64,000 nucleotides of DNA, taken from a virus. Positions 20,359-28,774 of this stretch are shown in pieces (position 1 is the first letter of the stretch; the number at the start of each line of letters is the position of its first letter). Location: the IMG/VR virus record IMGVR_UViG_3300043395_003072, positions 1-64,000 of that record; one strand, given 5' to 3'. Under the pieces are notes generated by a model. That model was not told the origin of the DNA and searched no databases. It saw only the letters and a program-made list of their open reading frames with translations. The translations under genes and the position numbers were made by a program.

Positions 20359-20566
20359 TAGAGAAAATTGCGGATACTTCTACTACTTGGAAGAAGAAGA
20401 CTACAAGAACATAGACTTCTCCAATAAATTCATCAACTGTCCCGAGTGTACTTCCTTAGCAGCTTATGTTCCTGACGATTTTGTTATGGAAACAAGCAAA
20501 GAAGAGTACATTCAAATCTATGCTAAGATTAATAAGGTATTTAAAGAATATGACGACGACAATTAA
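20339..20566 (+). CDS. small Zn-ribbon protein
   Basis: CFDRENCG...CPEC. Confidence 0.6.
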   Translation: MKIFCFDRENCGYFYYLEEEDYKNIDFSNKFINCPECTSLAAYVPDDFVMETSKEEYIQIYAKINKVFKEYDDDN

Positions 20567-22949
20567 TTACTATAGAGATTCGCAAAACAATCTTGCTTCT
20601 TTTGAATTGCAAGATGATGTTTTTCCAGGTTTTACTGATTTGCCTGATGATGCTTCTAGAGCATTACTCCTCTCAGCTTACTCTTCTTCTTTTTCTCAAG
20701 ACCCTATTCTAAGTTATGCTGGTAACAACCTCTTGACTGGTTATCCTTTCCAGGCAGAAAGAAGGACTCTTAATAGTCTTACTCCTCTATTAAGCCTAAC
20801 AGATCAATCTACTGCAATTTACAATAGTACAAGATATACAAGCCCAAGTTACTTTAATAATGTTGATAGCTTCTTACCAAGTATTAGCTTTAACAAGGAT
20901 GTATATAGGCAACTTTATACTGATCACCAAGTAGTAGCCTTTCAAAACACTTATACTACAGAGTTCCTTACTCAAAATGAAACAGTAAGAAGTTATACTC
21001 GTGGATCAATAAACGATCCTCAAGTGTTTTTCGAAAATCCACCTCAGCTTCCATACCTTTACTATTGTAAGAAAAAGCTAGTTGGAACTGTTGATAATCT
21101 ACCTGTCTTTTCAACTTTAGTTCCAGAAGCTTTTGTAACATTTAAAGATAAATGCATTAAGCTAGATGATATTACCTACCACTATGCTCCATTTGTTAAA
21201 AGCTCTTTTCCAGGTACTCATCGCCGGTGCTATGCAATTAAAAGCAACTTGAAATCAACTATAAAGTCTGGTGTTTTTGCTGACATTAGCACTGAAAATG
21301 CAAAGCTAATGGATATTATTGCTAACTCTACAGCTAAGCGTTTTACAGTAATTGAAGTACCAGGATGGTCATCTGCAGCTAAACTAAATGATCCTCTCAA
21401 GATTGTTGAATATACTAAGTCTCAGGTTCAAAAGCGTAAGGCTTGTTTGATTCCTGCGCTCTTCAAAATGCAATTTAGAGATGAAAACTTTCAACTAAAG
21501 GATTGCTATCATTTCTCTCTTGTTTTGAATGTAAAGCTATTCTTCTCAACTATTGCTAGTATTAATTCTTTTTCGAATCTAATAAATTCGTTAGGAGAAG
21601 GCGATGGTTTAAAGTTCTTTAATCCAGAAGCATACAAAGAAGCAATTTACAAAAAGCTTGGAATCTTAAGTTATTATAGCAGTCAGATGGTAGCCTCCTT
21701 GCCAGAAGCACAACTCAATATGCTTCTACACAAGTACACTACTCAAACCAAATCTACGCATCTTAATAGTGCTGATTGCGACGATATATTTTCTATTAAA
21801 CTTAATGTAAATCCAACTATCACTACAAACCTAGATAAAGCTAACGCTAAGTATGAAGAGATTAAGAACAATATCAAAACATACAAAAAGCACTTTCTAG
21901 AAACTTTTAATCAAAAGTCTTCTGCAGTTACCACATATATTGATTACAAAAGACGACTTAAAGAAGTAAAAGATACTTACGAAAATACTACACTTCATAA
22001 TCTTACCACAGTAATTGATAATATCTCCTTCTCTACGAGAGTAGCTCAAGTTGTAAAAGAATTTGAAAACGCTTATGAGGCAGATAAGAAAAGAGCTTTA
22101 TCTGAAAAAGATTATGTAAAAGATGAGTTCTTTAATAATCTTGCAAAAGATGGAATTTATATCGAATCTATCTCTTTTAAAACTAAAAATGGCAACACAA
22201 AGACCCTTACAGCTAACACTTTTGATAAAACCCAAATCTTAGACCACTTACTAAGTAATGATAGATCAAGTCTAATTCAATCTATCTCTAATATTACTTT
22301 GGTAACTACTAAGCCTCAGAAGATTAAGGTAGATAACGACCCAAATATGATTGTTGTAGGCGGTCCTTACCGAGTGTATGCTGAGCCAAATCTCCTGCAA
22401 GTTTCCTTAGCAGAACTTCCTGCTGTTTGGGGTTATAATCCAAACAACACTGATTATATTTACGTTCACCCTCATGCTGCTAGTGTTACAATTAGCTCCA
22501 CAACAGTACTTGATAAAGCTAGAGCATGTTTAGGTGAAGCTGCTCCAATGCTTCACAAAGCTGGTACTACTGGCGATATCAAGATGATGATCTATACTAT
22601 TCTTATCTGGCTTCGCTCAGCGAATAGTGCAGATCCTTGGGGTCGTAATTATGTTCACTTTCCTAAGCTATCTGATGTTGACTTCGAAGGTATTACTATG
22701 GAGAAGTTTAACAAGATTAGGGAAGAGCAAAGTCTTGAGGTTAATGAGGAAGATATTGATTCTTTCCTTTTAACTGATTTAGGAGACCCCGAAGAGGACG
22801 ATGATAGTGAGGAAGATCTCCCCTCTACAGACGACCCTGTAGTTGAAGATCAAACTATTACTATTGAGCAAATCTTTGATACAGCTTCTCCTCCGGCCTA
22901 TGTAAGATGGTCGAATTTAGCAAATCAACCCACAGACCCAACAAGGTAA
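20550..22949 (+). CDS. large coiled-coil protein with C-terminal prokaryotic E2 (UBC-like) domain
   Basis: HPH (22467) ... ACLG (Cys 22527) ... WLRSAN..DPWG; directly upstream of JAB, E1 and Ubl genes; likely ATG 20550. Confidence 0.68.
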   Translation: MTTTINYYRDSQNNLASFELQDDVFPGFTDLPDDASRALLLSAYSSSFSQDPILSYAGNNLLTGYPFQAERRTLNSLTPLLSLTDQSTAIYNSTRYTSPSYFNNVDSFLPSISFNKDVYRQLYTDHQVVAFQNTYTTEFLTQNETVRSYTRGSINDPQVFFENPPQLPYLYYCKKKLVGTVDNLPVFSTLVPEAFVTFKDKCIKLDDITYHYAPFVKSSFPGTHRRCYAIKSNLKSTIKSGVFADISTENAKLMDIIANSTAKRFTVIEVPGWSSAAKLNDPLKIVEYTKSQVQKRKACLIPALFKMQFRDENFQLKDCYHFSLVLNVKLFFSTIASINSFSNLINSLGEGDGLKFFNPEAYKEAIYKKLGILSYYSSQMVASLPEAQLNMLLHKYTTQTKSTHLNSADCDDIFSIKLNVNPTITTNLDKANAKYEEIKNNIKTYKKHFLETFNQKSSAVTTYIDYKRRLKEVKDTYENTTLHNLTTVIDNISFSTRVAQVVKEFENAYEADKKRALSEKDYVKDEFFNNLAKDGIYIESISFKTKNGNTKTLTANTFDKTQILDHLLSNDRSSLIQSISNITLVTTKPQKIKVDNDPNMIVVGGPYRVYAEPNLLQVSLAELPAVWGYNPNNTDYIYVHPHAASVTISSTTVLDKARACLGEAAPMLHKAGTTGDIKMMIYTILIWLRSANSADPWGRNYVHFPKLSDVDFEGITMEKFNKIREEQSLEVNEEDIDSFLLTDLGDPEEDDDSEEDLPSTDDPVVEDQTITIEQIFDTASPPAYVRWSNLANQPTDPTR

Positions 22950-22953
22950 TATC

Positions 22954-23976
22954 ATGAAATCTGTTTCCGACTTTAGAATGTTAAATGCTCCACCAAATAT
23001 CCTTGCAACAAGGAAAACAATTCAAGCGATCAAGCATATTGTTAAGATTGCTCCTGAAGAGGCTCAGTGGTTTCATACAGTCGAGTATGACTCTGAATCA
23101 AACTCTTTGATACTTGGTGAAGAACTATATATCCCTGAACAAGTTTGTTCTGCTGCAGAAGTTGATACTAGCTCTAGTATGATTGTTCGCTTTTACAAAG
23201 AGCTATCAGCTAAATATGATCAAGAGACTACAAATAATATTCTTAAATCTATGACTTGTTGGTGCCATAGTCACCACAATATGGCACCTAATCCAAGTGG
23301 TCAAGATGTAAGGCAGTTCTCTACATTAATCCAGCAATCCATAGATCAAAATCAGTCTTCTTGGCAAATCATGCTAATCTTCAATAAGAAAGATCAGTTT
23401 TATAGCCGAGTTTATGATCCAAATTCTGGCAACGTTTACGAGGGTGTCCCTATTGATGTTGTCGAGGATAGCTTTGATTTTAATTACATTGATGTTGCTG
23501 CTAAAACAAAGTTTAAAACTCCTACACCAGCACCTGCAGCTTTCGCTAATTATAAGTTTGGATCGCCTACACAGGTAAAGAAGATCCCAACAGATAATTA
23601 CAATTCTCAGATTGCTGAAACTATTATGGATCAAATTTTTACTACTAAAGATCTACTTCTAGATAAGTTTAAATTCTCTAAGAAAGAAGCTCAAACTTAC
23701 CTAGCTAATATCCATCAATGTTTAACCGATAAAGAGATTCTTTGGTTTTATAGTGTATTGTCTGGAAAGAAAGATATCATTATTGAATCTTATTCAGATG
23801 AAATTGCTAGTAATAAACTCAAAGAGCTTGAGCTTCCTCTAAATACTTTCTTTATAAACTTATTTACTTCAGGTAAGTTTACTCCAGATCATTGTAAGAA
23901 AGCTTTGAAGGCTATCTTTGAGCTAGATGACTGTCCGACTATTAGTGAATTAATCCAGAAAGTGAAGTTGGCTTAA
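22954..23976 (+). CDS. JAB/MPN+ (JAMM) metallopeptidase, Ubl-processing/deconjugating
   Basis: E(AQWF) ... HSH-x7-S-x2-D (WCHSHHNMAPNPSGQD). Confidence 0.9.
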   Translation: MKSVSDFRMLNAPPNILATRKTIQAIKHIVKIAPEEAQWFHTVEYDSESNSLILGEELYIPEQVCSAAEVDTSSSMIVRFYKELSAKYDQETTNNILKSMTCWCHSHHNMAPNPSGQDVRQFSTLIQQSIDQNQSSWQIMLIFNKKDQFYSRVYDPNSGNVYEGVPIDVVEDSFDFNYIDVAAKTKFKTPTPAPAAFANYKFGSPTQVKKIPTDNYNSQIAETIMDQIFTTKDLLLDKFKFSKKEAQTYLANIHQCLTDKEILWFYSVLSGKKDIIIESYSDEIASNKLKELELPLNTFFINLFTSGKFTPDHCKKALKAIFELDDCPTISELIQKVKLA

Positions 23977-24668
23977 TGCAAGTAAGTTTCCTTAGGCATA
24001 GTGGTTTCTTTGGTCCTGAAGATGTAAATGGTAAAACTCTAAATATTATTGGAGTTGGTGCCACAGGAAGTTGGGTTGGTCTCATCGCTGCTAAGATGGG
24101 CTGGCATAACTTCCGAGTCTGGGACCTTGATATCGTTGAGTCTCATAATCTACCTAATCAAATTTATAGTGCAAAGCACATTGGTATGAAAAAGGTTGAT
24201 GCTTTTGAGCAAGTACTAAAGGAGTTCAATCCTCAAGTACAAGTTCAAAAGTATGATCGTTTTTATACAAACCAAGAAGACATTTCTAAAATGGATTTTG
24301 GTTCTTATATGTTTATTGCAGTAGATAGTCTTTCCGCAAGGAAAGATATCATTGAAGGTGTTAAGAATAATCTCTTCTTAGAGTTAGTTGCTGAGTCCCA
24401 AATGGGTTTTACTCATGCTACTATTAACTACTTTGAGCCTAATGATTACCTTCAGTTAGATACTTACAAGTCTATGCTAAAAGATGATTCTGAAGTAACT
24501 GAATCAGCTTGCAATGAACGTATCATTACTACCTTGACAGCAATGGTTGCTTCTGAGATAGTTCAGACAATCTCTGCTCACGCTTCTAAAAGTCGTAGAA
24601 CCGACGGATATAAGCGCCCACATAAACAAATCTTCTCTCTTAACCCTCTAAAAGTAATTACTTTTTAA
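23976..24668 (+). CDS. ThiF/MoeB/E1-family activating enzyme
   Basis: IIGVGATGS, DLDIVESHNLPNQ, KKVDA, AVDS..AR; candidate catalytic Cys179 (SAC). Confidence 0.93.
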   Translation: MQVSFLRHSGFFGPEDVNGKTLNIIGVGATGSWVGLIAAKMGWHNFRVWDLDIVESHNLPNQIYSAKHIGMKKVDAFEQVLKEFNPQVQVQKYDRFYTNQEDISKMDFGSYMFIAVDSLSARKDIIEGVKNNLFLELVAESQMGFTHATINYFEPNDYLQLDTYKSMLKDDSEVTESACNERIITTLTAMVASEIVQTISAHASKSRRTDGYKRPHKQIFSLNPLKVITF

Positions 24669-24680
24669 TAAGGAATTAAA

Positions 24681-24875
24681 ATGACAACACGTGAACAACT
24701 ACAAGAAATCGTAGATCTTCTAACCCCTGCACTTGACGATGCTGCTAAGTTTGATCGAGGCATGGAAAGCCCAGGTACTCGTGTAAGAGTTGCTGCGTCT
24801 CAAGCTTCTAAGCTACTAAAGGCACTTCGCTCATCAATTCAAGAGACTCGCAAGTCTCGTAAGGATCAAGAATAA
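24681..24875 (+). CDS. histone H1-like Hc1 family small protein
   Basis: DAAKFDRG...GTRVR...K..R matches the Hc1 core pattern. Confidence 0.7.
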   Translation: MTTREQLQEIVDLLTPALDDAAKFDRGMESPGTRVRVAASQASKLLKALRSSIQETRKSRKDQE

Positions 24876-25099
24876 TGGTTACTATTACTCTCGTTGTAAT
24901 TCCTGGCCCCGGTGCTCGCACCGTTCAACTCTCCGATACAGCTACAATTCAAGATCTTGTGGTTCAAGAGAATCTCCACGGTCGCGATATTATTGTAGAT
25001 GGTCAAGGAGTAGCACCTGCTAGCTGGTCTTCAACACCAATTTCTTCTGGTGTTGAGATCTTTGCAACTGGCTCCGTTAAGGGCAACTCTTCTAACTAA
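24875..25099 (+). CDS. ubiquitin-like (beta-grasp) protein, single unit with short C-terminal extension
   Basis: ITLVVIPG..RTV.L...T..DL...IIVDG...EIFATGSVKG|NSSN; ThiS/MoaD/Ub-type pattern. Confidence 0.85.
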   Translation: MVTITLVVIPGPGARTVQLSDTATIQDLVVQENLHGRDIIVDGQGVAPASWSSTPISSGVEIFATGSVKGNSSN

Positions 25100-25173
25100 T
25101 TATCTCTTTATAAGATTTTAAGAAAACAGCCAGATTATTAAGAGATATTAACCTGTTACTTTAATTACCAACT

Positions 25174-25200
25174 AAGGGGCAATAAGCCCCTTTTTCATTT
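25174..25200 (+). terminator. Rho-independent terminator-like hairpin
   Basis: ggggc-aataa-gcccc-tttttcatttt. Confidence 0.6.
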
Positions 25201-25219
25201 CATTATTAAGGATTTTACT

Positions 25220-25894
25220 ATGGCTACCATTACTCTCGTCGTTATCCCTGGTCCTGGCGCTCGCACCGTAACCCTCGCAGCAGGTGCTTCTGTTGCTGAC
25301 CTTGTGTGTCAAGAGAACCTCCATGGTCGTGATATTATTATCAACGGCCAAGGTGTTCCTGCTGCTACTTGGGCTACAGCAACAGTCCCTGAGGCTGCAG
25401 AAGTCTTTGCTACTGGCTCCGTTAAGGGCAACTCTAACTCTATCACGCTTGTTGTTATCCCTGGGCCTGGTGCCCGTAGTGTTGCGCTTCCTGCTGGTGC
25501 AACCGTTGCAGATCTAGTTTGTCAGGAAAACTTGCATGGTCGTGATATTATTATTAATGGCCAGGGCGTAGCGCCTGCGCTTTGGCCAACAACACAGGTG
25601 CCTAGCCAGGCTGAAGTTTTTGCAACCGGATCTGTTAAGGGTAATGCTCATACTGTTACTTTGATTGTGATCCCTGGACCTGGCGCTCGCATCGTACAAG
25701 TAGAGCAAGGAACTACTGTTGCTGATTTTGTTTGCCAAGAAAATCTTCATGGCCGTGATATCATTATTAATGGCATTGGCTTGATTCCAGCAGACTGGGC
25801 TTCTACACCAGTTCCTCCAAACGTCGAGATCTTTGCTACTGGTTCAGTTAAGGGCAATAAGGATTCATCTGTGCCCGCAAATTTTACTATGTAA
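25220..25894 (+). CDS. poly-ubiquitin-like precursor: 3 tandem 71-aa Ubl units + 11-aa tail
   Basis: Three repeats each ending FATGSVKGN; 3x71+11=224 aa; paralogous to 24875..25099. Confidence 0.88.
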   Translation: MATITLVVIPGPGARTVTLAAGASVADLVCQENLHGRDIIINGQGVPAATWATATVPEAAEVFATGSVKGNSNSITLVVIPGPGARSVALPAGATVADLVCQENLHGRDIIINGQGVAPALWPTTQVPSQAEVFATGSVKGNAHTVTLIVIPGPGARIVQVEQGTTVADFVCQENLHGRDIIINGIGLIPADWASTPVPPNVEIFATGSVKGNKDSSVPANFTM

Positions 25895-26587: not shown

Positions 26588-26801
26588 TGCTTTTCAACGC
26601 ACTGACCTTGAGAACAACGGTATCATCTATCGTTGGAATCTAAATAACGTTCCAGATGCAGTAACTCAAATCTTATTTCTAAATGATTTGATTCTTCACG
26701 AAATGTCCTCTGGACGTGTTTGCAAAGTAAGACCTGACAAGCGTAAGCGAGCTCAAGGTCTTGTTGTTGTATTTTCTAATCCTTTGGAGGGTTCAAAATA
26801 A
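26565..26801 (+). CDS. hypothetical protein
   Basis: AAGGA RBS. Confidence 0.5.
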   Translation: MLSESLSNAFQRTDLENNGIIYRWNLNNVPDAVTQILFLNDLILHEMSSGRVCKVRPDKRKRAQGLVVVFSNPLEGSK

Positions 26802-27109
26802 TGGGTGCTCAAACATTTTATGATGAAGGCTCAGGCACTGATCCAAAGCAAGTCTTTAAAGATTTAGTTCAAGACGCTTTGCATTGGCATGGACACTCTC
26901 CTTATTCTGGTACCATCAAGGAAAAGCATAACTTTATTATGGCTACTAAGGATATTTTATCTGTAGAAGATGCTTATTCTTTAGCTGATAAACTAATTAG
27001 TACGCCTAACTATTCCGATAAATGGGGCCCAGCTGGTTGTATCCAGATGCTTCCTTCAGCAGGCAATACTACCCCAAGATATCTATTCTTTGGTTGGGCT
27101 TCGTCTTGA
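26801..27109 (+). CDS. conserved phage hypothetical protein
   Basis: GH..YSGTI.EK, DKWGPAGCI, YLFFGWASS. Confidence 0.7.
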   Translation: MGAQTFYDEGSGTDPKQVFKDLVQDALHWHGHSPYSGTIKEKHNFIMATKDILSVEDAYSLADKLISTPNYSDKWGPAGCIQMLPSAGNTTPRYLFFGWASS

Positions 27110-28339: not shown

Positions 28340-28774
28340 ATGTACGCTGCTTCATTTAATATCTACAAGAAATCTGCTGCTGCTCAATTCTCACTGCTAC
28401 CTCCTCGTCGTGATGAGAATGGTCGTGTATCTAAGAATGGAGCTATTCTTGTAGAGATGGCACCTAGTATTGGCGAGAAAGCTTATGACTGGAAGGGCAA
28501 GAAGCTTACCTTTGCTTTTGGAATCAATGATCTAGTTCAGTTCTTTGACGATCAAACCAATCCAAAGTGGGGTCAGTTCCTTCATGATAATGAGGGTCAA
28601 ATCAAAAAGCTTTCTATTACTCATGGAGAAGGTAAGTATGAGGGTACTTATATGATGGGTATCTCTTCTGGAGATAACCGAGTATCTGTCTCTCTTTCAG
28701 GAGGCGAGTTCGCTACATTGCATCGCCTATTTACTGCTGCACTCCCTAAGATTCTTGGATGGGACAGTGTCTGA
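28340..28774 (+). CDS. Whirly-like ssDNA-binding protein
   Basis: IYKKSAA, G.ILVEMAP..G...YDW, FLHD, EFATL...LPKILGW follow the plant Whirly consensus in order. Confidence 0.75.
   Translation: MYAASFNIYKKSAAAQFSLLPPRRDENGRVSKNGAILVEMAPSIGEKAYDWKGKKLTFAFGINDLVQFFDDQTNPKWGQFLHDNEGQIKKLSITHGEGKYEGTYMMGISSGDNRVSVSLSGGEFATLHRLFTAALPKILGWDSV

Follow-up and report, generated by a model that had tools for sequence, protein, structure and literature searches.

To our knowledge, genes built of tandem complete modifier units, and modifier–cargo fusions cut by a protease, have been regarded as a trait of eukaryotic ubiquitin, and the bacterial multi-domain ubiquitin-like proteins (Ubls) studied so far work intact. 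ISG15 and FAT10 are also multi-domain Ubls that are used intact. In QbsE/QbsD/QbsC and CysO/Mec+, a ThiS-like carrier is paired with a ThiF-type E1 and a JAB that trims the residues after the terminal Gly. In type I Bub (6E.1), the JAB of BubCD cuts the linear BubAB Ubl–E2 fusion after a conserved Gly to give an activatable Ubl; Bub Ubls have 1–3 beta-grasp domains, and Bub works via oxyesters, without an E1 Cys (Ye et al. 2024, PMC11601596). The Ubl3 domains of Bil and Bub are differentiated and act intact as filaments (PMC11601603). In type II CBASS, Cap2 works on substrates ending in Gly or Ala, and a C-terminal Ser, Val, Arg or Trp abolishes its conjugation (PMC10097602).

The window analysed here (the 64,000-nt stretch at positions 1 to 64,000 of IMG/VR record IMGVR_UViG_3300043395_003072) comes from a large, uncultured, aquatic phage that encodes a Ubl once singly and three times head to tail in one gene (Table 1). 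The original prediction of a separate monomer and a 224-aa three-unit protein was borne out (the 74-aa ORF 24875–25099 and ORF 25220–25894). Its invariant segments IPGPGAR, QENLHGRDII and FATGSVKGN were indeed identical in a gap-free alignment of the four units, and it was correct that neither product has a free C-terminal Gly as translated. A search of the phage's own genome with the monomer recovered the three other units at E 2e-29 to 4e-29, and a unit HMM recovered all four at about 5e-43 to 1e-44; the four-unit repeat is not due to chance. The monomer has 265 homologues of 40–130 aa. Its start (24875) shares one base with the stop of the Hc1-like gene upstream, and an AAGGA ribosome-binding site, read from the sequence, lies 8 nt ahead of the ATG at 25220. 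The hairpin between the two genes is weakly supported, since the terminator consensus scan found 2 sites against 1.3 expected. The resemblance between the monomer tail (NSSN) and an array junction (NSNS), proposed as a sign of common origin, is weak because linkers vary freely in relatives (e.g. VSS, TSS, QDT and MSN).

Table 1. Features of the Ubl locus, in window coordinates
Feature	Position	Strand	Evidence or remark
827-aa protein with C-terminal candidate E2-like conjugating domain	20466..22949	+	Motif
JAB/JAMM metallopeptidase, 340 aa	22954..23976	+	JAMM residues, weak profile matches
Minimal ThiF-type E1-like adenylating enzyme, 230 aa	23976..24668	+	Pfam ThiF
Hc1 (histone H1-like) basic protein, 64 aa, between E1 and Ubl genes	24681..24875	+	Pfam Hc1
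Free-standing Ubl gene, 74 aa: 71-aa beta-grasp unit ending FATGSVKGN, then tail SSN	24875..25099	+	ORF
Terminator-like G+C hairpin followed by T run, between monomer and three-unit genes	25174..25192	+	Consensus scan
Poly-Ubl gene, 224 aa: three head-to-tail 71-aa units and 11-aa tail	25220..25894	+	ORF, alignment, HMM
Poly-Ubl unit 1 (MAT-ITL...FATGSVKGN)	25220..25432	+	HMM E 5e-43
Poly-Ubl unit 2 (SNS-ITL...FATGSVKGN)	25433..25645	+	HMM E 8e-44
Poly-Ubl unit 3 (AHT-VTL...FATGSVKGN)	25646..25858	+	HMM E 9e-44
Poly-Ubl C-terminal tail KDSSVPANFTM, 11 aa	25859..25891	+	Kept in nearest relatives L011, L012, L013
102-aa protein (orf102), no recognised fold family	26801..27109	+	Domain fused after arrays elsewhere

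The layout, with a 71-aa period equal to a free-standing ORF and three units followed by an 11-aa tail, resembles that of eukaryotic polyubiquitin (yeast UBI4, human UBB/UBC) and ubiquitin–ribosomal protein fusions. In both, units are joined head to tail without a spacer, each keeps its C-terminal activation motif (a presumed one in the phage) and a short cap follows the last; copy number varies between relatives, separate single-unit genes and unit–cargo fusions occur, and a dedicated protease is required for unit release (predicted in the phage). However, the phage units are not ubiquitin: their fold is nearer ThiS/MoaD/SAMP and their tail is K-G-N rather than R-G-G. The role of protease is predicted for a JAMM enzyme from a neighbouring gene instead of a USP or UCH, and the host is a phage, for which cleavage is a prediction.

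As in type I Bub, a Ubl, an E1, a JAB and an E2-type partner (a candidate in the phage) are found in one operon. In contrast to Bub, the phage has separate genes for JAB and E1, an invariant Cys is retained in its E1, and its Ubl stands apart from the candidate E2. Its units are equal, full-length copies that each carry the tail motif, and the system is phage-encoded rather than part of a defence island. We rejected a type I Bub (6E.1) identity because of the separate JAB and E1, the unfused Ubl and a BubCD match limited to the Rossmann half (E 5e-4). Bil (BilABCD) and its Ubl3 proteins also combine Ubl, E2, JAB and E1 and include multi-beta-grasp Ubls (Chambers et al. 2023, PMC10557695; 2024 oligomerisation preprint, PMC11601603). 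The phage E1, unlike that of Bil, is a single 230-aa ThiF domain, and a Bil identity was rejected on this ground (BilD architecture from PMC11601596). The Qbs and CysO/Mec+ systems share the small ThiS-like beta-grasp protein, the ThiF-type E1 and the JAB, but their carriers end in Gly-Gly, are single units and lie beside sulfur-acceptor enzymes, and none of these three traits holds for the phage. Type II CBASS (Cap2/Cap3) is alike in E1-type conjugation of a Gly or Ala C-terminus and reversal by a JAB, which bears on a sister clade of the phage family with Ala in place of Asn, although CBASS acts on a CD-NTase instead of a beta-grasp Ubl and has a fused E1–E2 (PMC10097602).

By fold, the unit belongs to the beta-grasp Ubl superfamily, with a mixed sheet gripping one helix and a flexible C-terminal tail. 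The AF2 model (pLDDT 90.6) has strands at residues 2–9, 13–19, 37–41, 44–46 and 61–66 and a helix at 25–31, with low confidence from residue 67 on. The nearest structures in Foldseek were ThiS (3cwi, E 8e-4), MoaD (6jbz_B, TM 0.74), SAMP1 and ubiquitin. The units were rejected as ubiquitin homologues in the narrow sense, because they had no match to Pfam ubiquitin, structural alignments gave 11–15% identity to ubiquitin, and ThiS and MoaD were closer. In Pfam, PHROGs, NCBIfam and PADLOC, no family scored above its cut-off for the Ubl; a weak TIGR01683 thiS match (E 2.7e-4) fell below it, and some homologues have been named ThiS by JGI. Neither the locus nor the Ubl had a match in the INPHARED phages by blastn or tblastn.

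Protein identity between the units was 62–79% and nucleotide identity 63–72%. The wide divergence at third codon positions that had been claimed was confirmed, with third-position identity of only 35–58%. Between units, pS was 0.49–0.79, dS ranged from 0.8 to saturated and dN was 0.15–0.28; the dN/dS comparison proposed as a check gave about 0.2–0.3 where computable, with synonymous sites at or near saturation. Tandem Repeats Finder detected no repeat at the DNA level because the copies are too diverged. The DNA divergence and this null result fit old copies held by selection on the protein, and since the units appear old and under purifying selection, the suggestion of 'four slightly different modifiers' is plausible. 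K69 was the sole Lys in 118 of 120 homologues, and the window's units have no Lys at their 280 other positions, compared with 18.6 expected. This lysine desert would suit a protein exposed to lysine-directed ligation.

The gene row (827-aa protein, JAB, E1 and Ubl genes) is conserved in about 20 related phage contigs, and every long locus, Ala-type ones included, has its E1, JAB and Ubl genes in tight synteny. The commonest free-standing form is a 71-aa ORF ending ...KGN (42 of 120 close homologues). As this length equals the repeat period, the arrays are whole genes joined head to tail. The proposed comparison of copy number across relatives showed that it varies from 1 to 4 units per gene, in layouts of 1+3, 1+2, 1+1 and 1+1+1 and as 2x, 3x or 4x arrays. 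The closest relatives (L011–L013) have the same 1+3 layout, and their array tails are [KQ]DSSVPANFTM in L011 and L012 and MEDSSVPPNFTM in L013. The complete tail motif was kept in all 96 complete units from 38 loci, and K-G-N at all 168 internal junctions of 120 long proteins. This retention, together with synonymous sites at or near saturation between the window's units and a dN/dS of about 0.2–0.3, indicates that selection maintains each internal tail.

Two further arrangements in relatives bear on processing. In L009/L032 and L030, the sole Ubl gene found in the recovered DNA encodes a 2x unit followed by a 27-aa Arg-Gly tail, with E1 and JAB still present. Because the Ubl occurs there solely as a 2x unit with a tail, it would have no free end without processing, and on the sequences recovered processing would be obligatory in these loci. 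A domain like orf102, which is separate in the window, is fused in other phages directly after the last K-G-N of 1x, 2x, 3x or 4x arrays (P0121, P0124, P0241, P0245 and P0345); we counted this cargo fusion as support for processing. The orf102-like domains align with an invariant C80 and an F-G-W-A end (alignment A6). No relative was found in Pfam or the PDB, and the Atlas gave only unnamed viral clusters.

The putative protease is encoded immediately downstream of the 827-aa protein. Its catalytic domain spans about residues 1–190 and its C-terminal half is variable. It carries the complete JAMM/MPN+ motif E ... H-x-H-x7-S-x2-D, with E36, H105, H107, S115 and D118 unchanged across 12 phage orthologues and 3 Ala-type loci. 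The match to Pfam Prok-JAB was below cut-off (E 0.0019, 18.5 bits against 25), and PADLOC returned weak generic JAB and E1-E2 matches only. A model of the JAB–Ubl complex scored 0.90 in three runs compared with 0.02 for the best control; at least 93% of contacts were common to the runs and partner pLDDT was at least 93. The pass mark had been calibrated on 80 solved complexes, of which 58 reached it, and on 110 mismatched pairs, of which 2 did. In the modelled interface, E36, H105, H107, S115 and D118 of the JAB meet Ubl residues 65–74, so that the JAB is modelled as holding the Ubl tail at its catalytic residues. Solved JAMM–ubiquitin complexes already exist, and resemblance to these may account for part of this pass. 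The modelled interface lies on the most conserved residues, an outcome that conservation in the supplied alignments could produce by itself.

These data bear on whether the 224-aa protein is instead a three-domain Ubl that is used intact. In that case the final tail alone would be trimmed, and the internal K-G-N motifs would persist because they serve binding or through gene conversion. Intact use has precedent, as Ubl3 proteins are common in Bil and Bub, where they act as intact dimers or filaments (PMC11601603), and a 2006 paper noted polyUbl in bacterial 6E operons (PMC1779556). The phage units, however, are near-equal full copies and not differentiated domains, and copy number differs between close relatives, in which monomer genes coexist with arrays. 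Within-array units are often each other's nearest relatives in the unit tree, a clustering that could reflect gene conversion. This tree has poor resolution (28 of 66 forks open over 68 columns) and thus gives only a loose picture of gene-1 and gene-2 groups and within-array pairs, and the full tail at all internal junctions, despite synonymous sites at or near saturation, argues against intact use. In addition, the linker of about 9 flexible residues is accessible (tail pLDDT drops after residue 66) and the model places residues 65–74, including three beyond Asn71, on the JAB. We consider intact use improbable.

It is also conceivable that the units are never activated and serve as structural or chaperone beta-grasp repeats (e.g. 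solubility or assembly tags), with the E1 and JAB acting elsewhere. In the 7.5 kb of sequence available for the distant 4x K-G-N array P0211 (locus L052), E1 and JAB genes are absent, and conserved tails and cargo show that the fusions are functional in their own right. Yet the tight E1–JAB–Ubl synteny extends even to Ala-type loci, the flexible tail is invariant and the JAB–Ubl model is strong, which leaves this reading hardly credible.

Processing into units of about 7 kDa is the best reading of the sequences and the model, and a reasonably probable one. The cut that the BubCD JAB makes in the BubAB fusion is a precedent for it. The original prediction had the JAB cutting after each Gly70. 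Its processing part is supported by junction retention, variable copy number, the fused-only 2x genes, the invariant JAMM residues and the model (0.90), whereas the exact cut at Gly70 is one of two readings, considered below.

The neighbouring E1 matched Pfam ThiF (PF00899; E 6e-20, 71.8 bits against a cut-off of 28.1). Its nucleotide-binding loop G26-x-G28-A-T-G31-S, D117 and C179 are invariant, C179 in 12 Asn-type and 3 Ala-type E1s. By our own comparison of sequence motifs, C179 would correspond to ThiF Cys184 and MoeB Cys187. Profile matches in the PDB covered the Rossmann half only (PaaA, TcdA, UBA5, MoeB, Cap2, ThiF, MccB and BubCD), and for the E1 alone, distant ThiF genes with 24–31% identity were found in crAss-like, Flavobacterium and Xanthomonas phages of INPHARED.

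An E1 of ThiF size with Cys at the presumed ThiF/MoeB position raises the possibility that the units are ThiS/MoaD-type sulfur carriers. The E1 would then convert their C-terminus to a thiocarboxylate that feeds a thio-cofactor or thio-nucleoside pathway, and the JAB would only trim precursors. The nearest folds (ThiS and MoaD), the weak TIGR01683 match and the JGI names point the same way, and QbsD and Mec+ are precedents for trimming by a JAB. Nevertheless, the Gly-Gly end is absent, the complete phage genome has no homologue of ThiG, MoaE or a PLP cysteine synthase (PALP), the E1 lacks a rhodanese domain, and it is not evident why a sulfur carrier would need a lysine desert, four paralogous units or fused cargo domains. 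We consider this very improbable.

Under the preferred reading, processing of precursors, we infer the cleavage, its exact bond, the thioester transfer, the E2 role and the targets as follows. Both genes would encode precursors of a phage ubiquitin-like modifier, each 71-aa unit being a complete beta-grasp protein with the flexible tail G-S-V-K-G-N. The JAB would bind the conserved unit face (IPGPGAR, NLHGRD and FATGSVKGN) with the tail threaded into its zinc site, and would cut every junction and the C-terminal tail at the invariant K-G-N, yielding four units of about 7 kDa each from the two genes. The E1 would then adenylate the exposed C-terminus and probably transfer it onto Cys179. From there, the unit would probably be handed to the Cys of an HPH...CLGE domain in the 827-aa protein and on to phage or host lysines, and the JAB could also reverse conjugation.

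This candidate E2 was identified by motif. The C-terminal region of the 827-aa protein has an invariant HPH-x(17-30)-C-L-G-E ... W..ANS.D.WG pattern, in which H69, P70, H71, C89, G91 and E92 of the alignment are invariant. A PDB profile search with this C-terminus gave only noise and Foldseek returned nothing below E 0.1. VIA-align gave Z 2.8–3.3 to UBE2S, Ube2K, UbcH7, UBE2G2 and Pex4p over 67–96 residues, scores that are no better than those of unrelated rows and within noise.

The exact bond depends on which residue is activated. Gly70 is invariant across the wider family and is followed by Asn in this clade or Ala in the sister clade: in 107 motif-carrying representatives, residue 71 is Asn in 50, Ala in 54, Gly in 2 and Val in 1. 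Exactly one residue after K-G is where 80 of these 107 end, and none ends at Gly; among close homologues, 45 of 120 end exactly at ...KGN, and none of about 230 family members ends at Gly. Because most proteins end at residue 71 and none at Gly, the mature end could be Gly-Asn. The activated C-terminus would then be residue 71 (Gly-Asn, or Gly-Ala in the sister clade), with the JAB cutting after Asn71, the 71-aa forms left untrimmed and the E1 adenylating the Asn or Ala carboxylate; we rate this as unlikely, but with a real chance. MccB, an E1-like enzyme that adenylates a C-terminal Asn, is among the PDB matches of the phage E1 (E 3.5e-5, Rossmann half only), and a cut after Asn would give downstream units and orf102-like cargo their free-standing N-termini minus Met. 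The invariant position is nevertheless Gly70, although the activated residue is expected to be the most constrained. Gly70 also presumably lines up with the terminal Gly of ThiS and MoaD, judged by strand-to-end distance in our own sequence comparison. Eukaryotic Ubls destined for conjugation are normally all made with a cap, so the missing free Gly is not decisive. The behaviour of Cap2 cuts both ways: it conjugates Gly or Ala C-termini, but Ser, Val, Arg and Trp abolish conjugation, and Asn is larger than Ser (PMC10097602).

Other differences between the clades are uninformative about the bond. JAB residue 117 is Gln in 12 of 12 Asn-type and Thr in 3 of 3 Ala-type loci, and from Asn-type to Ala-type E1s A178 becomes P and T30 becomes V. 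These differences cannot separate G|N from N|x because all fall on a single clade split, and in sequence comparison the register of the fusions does not separate them either. We counted the invariance of Gly70, with residue 71 toggling between Asn and Ala, for a cut at G|N, which we modestly favour over N|x. MccB-like succinimide or phosphoramidate Asn chemistry was rejected as a general mechanism, since half of the wider family has Ala in place of Asn; given this alternation, the chemistry cannot depend on the Asn side chain. An MccA/MccB-type system was also rejected, as the 230-aa E1 has no N-terminal extension and Asn alternates with Ala.

A literature search found no paper on this phage Ubl family. 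It appears that large aquatic phages of a widespread lineage use a eukaryote-style layout with very small parts, namely a 7-kDa tag, a JAB and an E1 of 230 aa. If the cleavage is true, the precursor strategy would have arisen outside eukaryotes, the phages would provide a compact and easily reconstituted conjugation system, and Ubl conjugation would be phage equipment and not solely bacterial defence. Asn or Ala after an invariant Gly also poses the question of which C-termini an E1 can activate. Were the end Gly-Asn, which we suggest only tentatively, a minimal E1 would transfer a protein via its C-terminal Asn, and the JAB would free orf102-like cargo and Arg-Gly tails with native N-termini. 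As far as we know, this would be the first Asn-terminated ubiquitin-like conjugation, and it would occur in a phage system that in addition parallels the polyubiquitin and ubiquitin-fusion genes of eukaryotes.

The small basic protein encoded between the E1 and the monomer Ubl matched Pfam Hc1 (E 6e-8, 32.9 bits against a cut-off of 23.5), and by synteny its gene is kept in the same position in the Asn-type phages.

Two genes for ubiquitin-like (Ubl) proteins lie at the 3′ end of a co-oriented gene row in the source virus record, which is 158,462 bp long and rated complete by CheckV. The original prediction described three 71-aa head-to-tail units with an 11-aa tail and a separate monomer; this was confirmed by the ORFs, by a gap-free alignment of the four units (62–79% protein identity) and by searching the phage's own genome, in which the monomer matched each repeat at ~1e-29. 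The wide third-position differences around invariant IPGPGAR, QENLHGRDII and FATGSVKGN were also borne out, with a nucleotide identity between units of 63–72%, a third-position identity of 35–58%, pS of 0.49–0.79 and dN of 0.15–0.28. Since the DNA has strongly diverged, dN/dS between repeats is ~0.2–0.3 where dS is finite and Tandem Repeats Finder detected no tandem repeat at the DNA level, the copies appear to be old and kept by selection on the protein. The likeness of the monomer tail (NSSN) to a repeat junction (NSNS), read earlier as a sign of common origin, carries no weight because linkers vary freely in relatives. A terminator-like hairpin between the two genes (consensus scan, weak on its own) means that they may be differently expressed.

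Features of the gene row and the Ubl genes (window coordinates)
Feature	Position	Strand	Remarks
827-aa protein	20466-22949	+	C-terminal region with invariant HPH-x(17-30)-CLGE motif
340-aa JAB/JAMM metallopeptidase (JAB)	22954-23976	+	E36, H105, H107, S115, D118 invariant, 12 orthologues
230-aa ThiF-type adenylating enzyme (E1)	23976-24668	+	PF00899 71.8 bits; Gly-rich loop, D117, C179 invariant
64-aa Hc1-like basic protein	24681-24875	+	Pfam Hc1 E 6e-8
74-aa Ubl monomer	24875-25099	+	ORF
Terminator-like hairpin	25174-25192		
224-aa poly-Ubl (3x gene)	25220-25894	+	ORF; three 71-aa units, then 11-aa tail KDSSVPANFTM
Unit 1	25220-25432	+	71 aa
Unit 2	25433-25645	+	71 aa
Unit 3	25646-25858	+	71 aa
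102-aa protein	26801-27109		
144-aa protein	28340-28774		

Every long related contig shows one recurring gene order: NTase, Zn-ribbon, large protein, JAB, E1, Hc1, Ubl genes, PhoH and Whirly-like gene. These contigs come from marine and freshwater metagenomes, with 50–76% E1 identity among them. As a candidate E2, the 827-aa protein had no PDB sequence match and no Foldseek match, and its VIA-align comparison with several E2 enzymes gave a Z of only ~3.

An AlphaFold2 model of the unit (57-sequence alignment) is a confident beta-grasp (pLDDT 90.6) whose best structural matches are ThiS (3cwi), MoaD (6jbz_B), SAMP1 and ubiquitin. Confidence drops past residue 66, which is why the final six residues, G-S-V-K-G-N, are read as a flexible tail. 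The unit reached the cut-off of no Pfam, PHROG or NCBIfam model and does not count as ubiquitin in the strict sense. K69 is the sole lysine in 118 of 120 close homologues, and the window's four units have none at the other 280 positions, compared with 18.6 expected from the window's long ORFs, an expectation that treats four mutually related units as independent and makes the P value naive. This near-absence of lysine is a possible sign of lysine-directed conjugation. The phage genome yielded no homologue of ThiG, MoaE or PLP cysteine synthase, so a sulfur-carrier role is less likely.

The best-supported reading is that the Ubl genes encode precursors that are processed into units, and we consider this probable rather than firm because the evidence is comparative and model-based. 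Among Ubl homologues (265 of 40–130 aa and 128 longer), unit number varies, as the proposed copy-number comparison revealed: layouts across 38 loci include 1+3, 1+2, 1+1, 1+1+1 and a single 2x gene, and long proteins have 2, 3 or 4 units at 70–74-residue spacing. The tail is kept in 96/96 complete units in the loci and 168/168 internal junctions in the long proteins. G-S-V-K-G-N hardly varies across the 120 close short homologues listed, with GTVKGN and ASVKGN as minor variants, and their most frequent form is 71 aa long with Asn as its last residue. In L009/L032 and L030, related phage loci that still have E1 and JAB, the sole Ubl gene in the locus stretch is a 2x unit plus a conserved ~27-aa tail with GRPSGGGRGNN; an activatable end there would therefore need endoproteolysis. 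In a poorly resolved unit tree, the units of several arrays are each other's nearest relatives, which indicates repeated duplication or homogenisation.

In 31 long proteins, a ~98-aa domain directly follows the last K-G-N; in the window it is a free gene, that of the 102-aa protein. It occurs after 1x to 4x arrays (P0121, P0124, P0241, P0245, P0345), its Cys80 is invariant, its C-terminus carries an F-G-W-A motif, and no known fold was recognised in the 102-aa protein. By analogy with the BubAB Ubl-E2 fusion, it may be released cargo or a system partner. About a quarter of single-unit homologues have a conserved basic tail of 24–36 aa after K-G-N (...GPS.TGRPSGGGRGNN.P..K; loci L007-L010, L015, L017, L018 and others; proteins P0011, P0036, P0038). 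The window's clade has no such tail, its last unit carrying a conserved DSSVP[AP]NFTM instead.

A zinc-containing complex model of the 74-aa monomer and JAB residues 1-195 supports binding of the unit by JAB. The score was 0.90 in 3/3 runs (best control, 0.02), with at least 93% of contacts common between runs and a partner pLDDT of at least 93. The calibration of the tool, in which 58/80 solved complexes and 2/110 mismatched pairs reached the mark, applies only roughly to this run because custom alignments and an accompanying metal were used. JAMM-ubiquitin complexes have been solved, so the score may partly reflect likeness to these. The modelled interface comprises E36, H105, H107, S115 and D118 of JAB and Ubl residues 7-14, 33-45, 63 and 65-74, i.e. 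the invariant patches and the entire tail, including three residues past Asn71.

Within the processing model, we lean slightly towards a cut after Gly70, with Asn71 as a one-residue cap, over a mature Gly-Asn end. Gly70 is the invariant position, and conjugated eukaryotic Ubls are likewise always synthesised capped. Searching 1.84 billion representatives with a profile gave 121 family members, 107 of them with the motif, in which the residue after K-G is Asn (50), Ala (54), Gly (2) or Val (1); 80 of the 107 end exactly at this residue and none stops at the Gly before it. Three Ala-type loci, L043, L048 and L050, each have a single Ubl that ends in KGA, and the large protein, JAB and E1 are all present. 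The somewhat less likely alternative is that the mature end is Gly-Asn (Gly-Ala in Ala-type loci). It is favoured by the complete lack of uncapped forms and by the narrow choice of residues at position 71; a precedent for it is Cap2, which conjugates C-termini that are Gly or Ala (PMC10097602). Asn side-chain chemistry as in MccB is disfavoured because Ala alternates with Asn. JAB residue 117, which directly precedes the zinc ligand Asp118, is Gln in 12/12 Asn-type and Thr in 3/3 Ala-type loci, and from Asn-type to Ala-type E1, Ala178 (adjacent to Cys179) is replaced by Pro and Thr30 by Val. These positions may determine specificity for residue 71 but, as all differences fall on one clade split, they decide nothing on the cut site.

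Tandem Ubl domains were noted in bacterial 6E operons in 2006 (PMC1779556), three-beta-grasp Bil and Bub Ubls work as intact dimers and filaments (PMC11601603), and a linear Ubl-E2 fusion is cut after a conserved Gly by the BubCD JAB (PMC11601596). In contrast to 6E, Bil and Bub, the phage units are equal whole copies, each with a tail, monomer genes and cargo fusions occur beside arrays in the family, and the system, with its separate, minimal JAB and E1, belongs to a phage lineage. The defining E1 architecture of Bil, gene fusions of Type I Bub and features of MccA/MccB are absent. Eukaryotic polyubiquitin and ubiquitin-fusion genes are closest in predicted working, although the phage system does not belong to that family. 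We found no literature description of a K-G-N Ubl phage family.

In Asn-type loci, the gene for Hc1 (chlamydial histone H1-like) always separates E1 from the Ubl genes; in the window, its stop overlaps the Ubl start by one base. It is missing from this position in L043, L048 and L050. The large HPH...C.GE protein of Ala-type phages (L043 3447-5783, L050 626-2959) has a C-terminal WGR domain (precomputed Pfam PF05406) that the window's 827-aa protein lacks. In Bacteroides phage crAss001 (MH675552.1 81394-83792, locus L047), gp76 (annotated ThiF), a distant E1 at 26% identity, directly follows gp77 (annotated metalloprotease) and may belong to a comparable module; none of the papers searched connects crAss001 with ThiF. 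P0211 (locus L052 6001-6855) is a distant 4x tandem beta-grasp protein with all units ending K-K-I-K-G-N, and no homologue of E1 or JAB turned up near it within the 7.5 kb of L052. In P0145 (212 aa, representative library), the N-terminal 160 aa resemble, in our reading, the first part of an HK97-type major capsid protein and are joined to the C-terminal 50 residues of a Ubl unit that ends in K-G-N; this protein may be a chimera produced by assembly or gene calling, or may point to targets. All related phages encode the 144-aa protein found downstream of PhoH, at 64–88% conservation, and its homologues (including those in L043 and L048) have a precomputed Pfam Whirly (PF08536) match.
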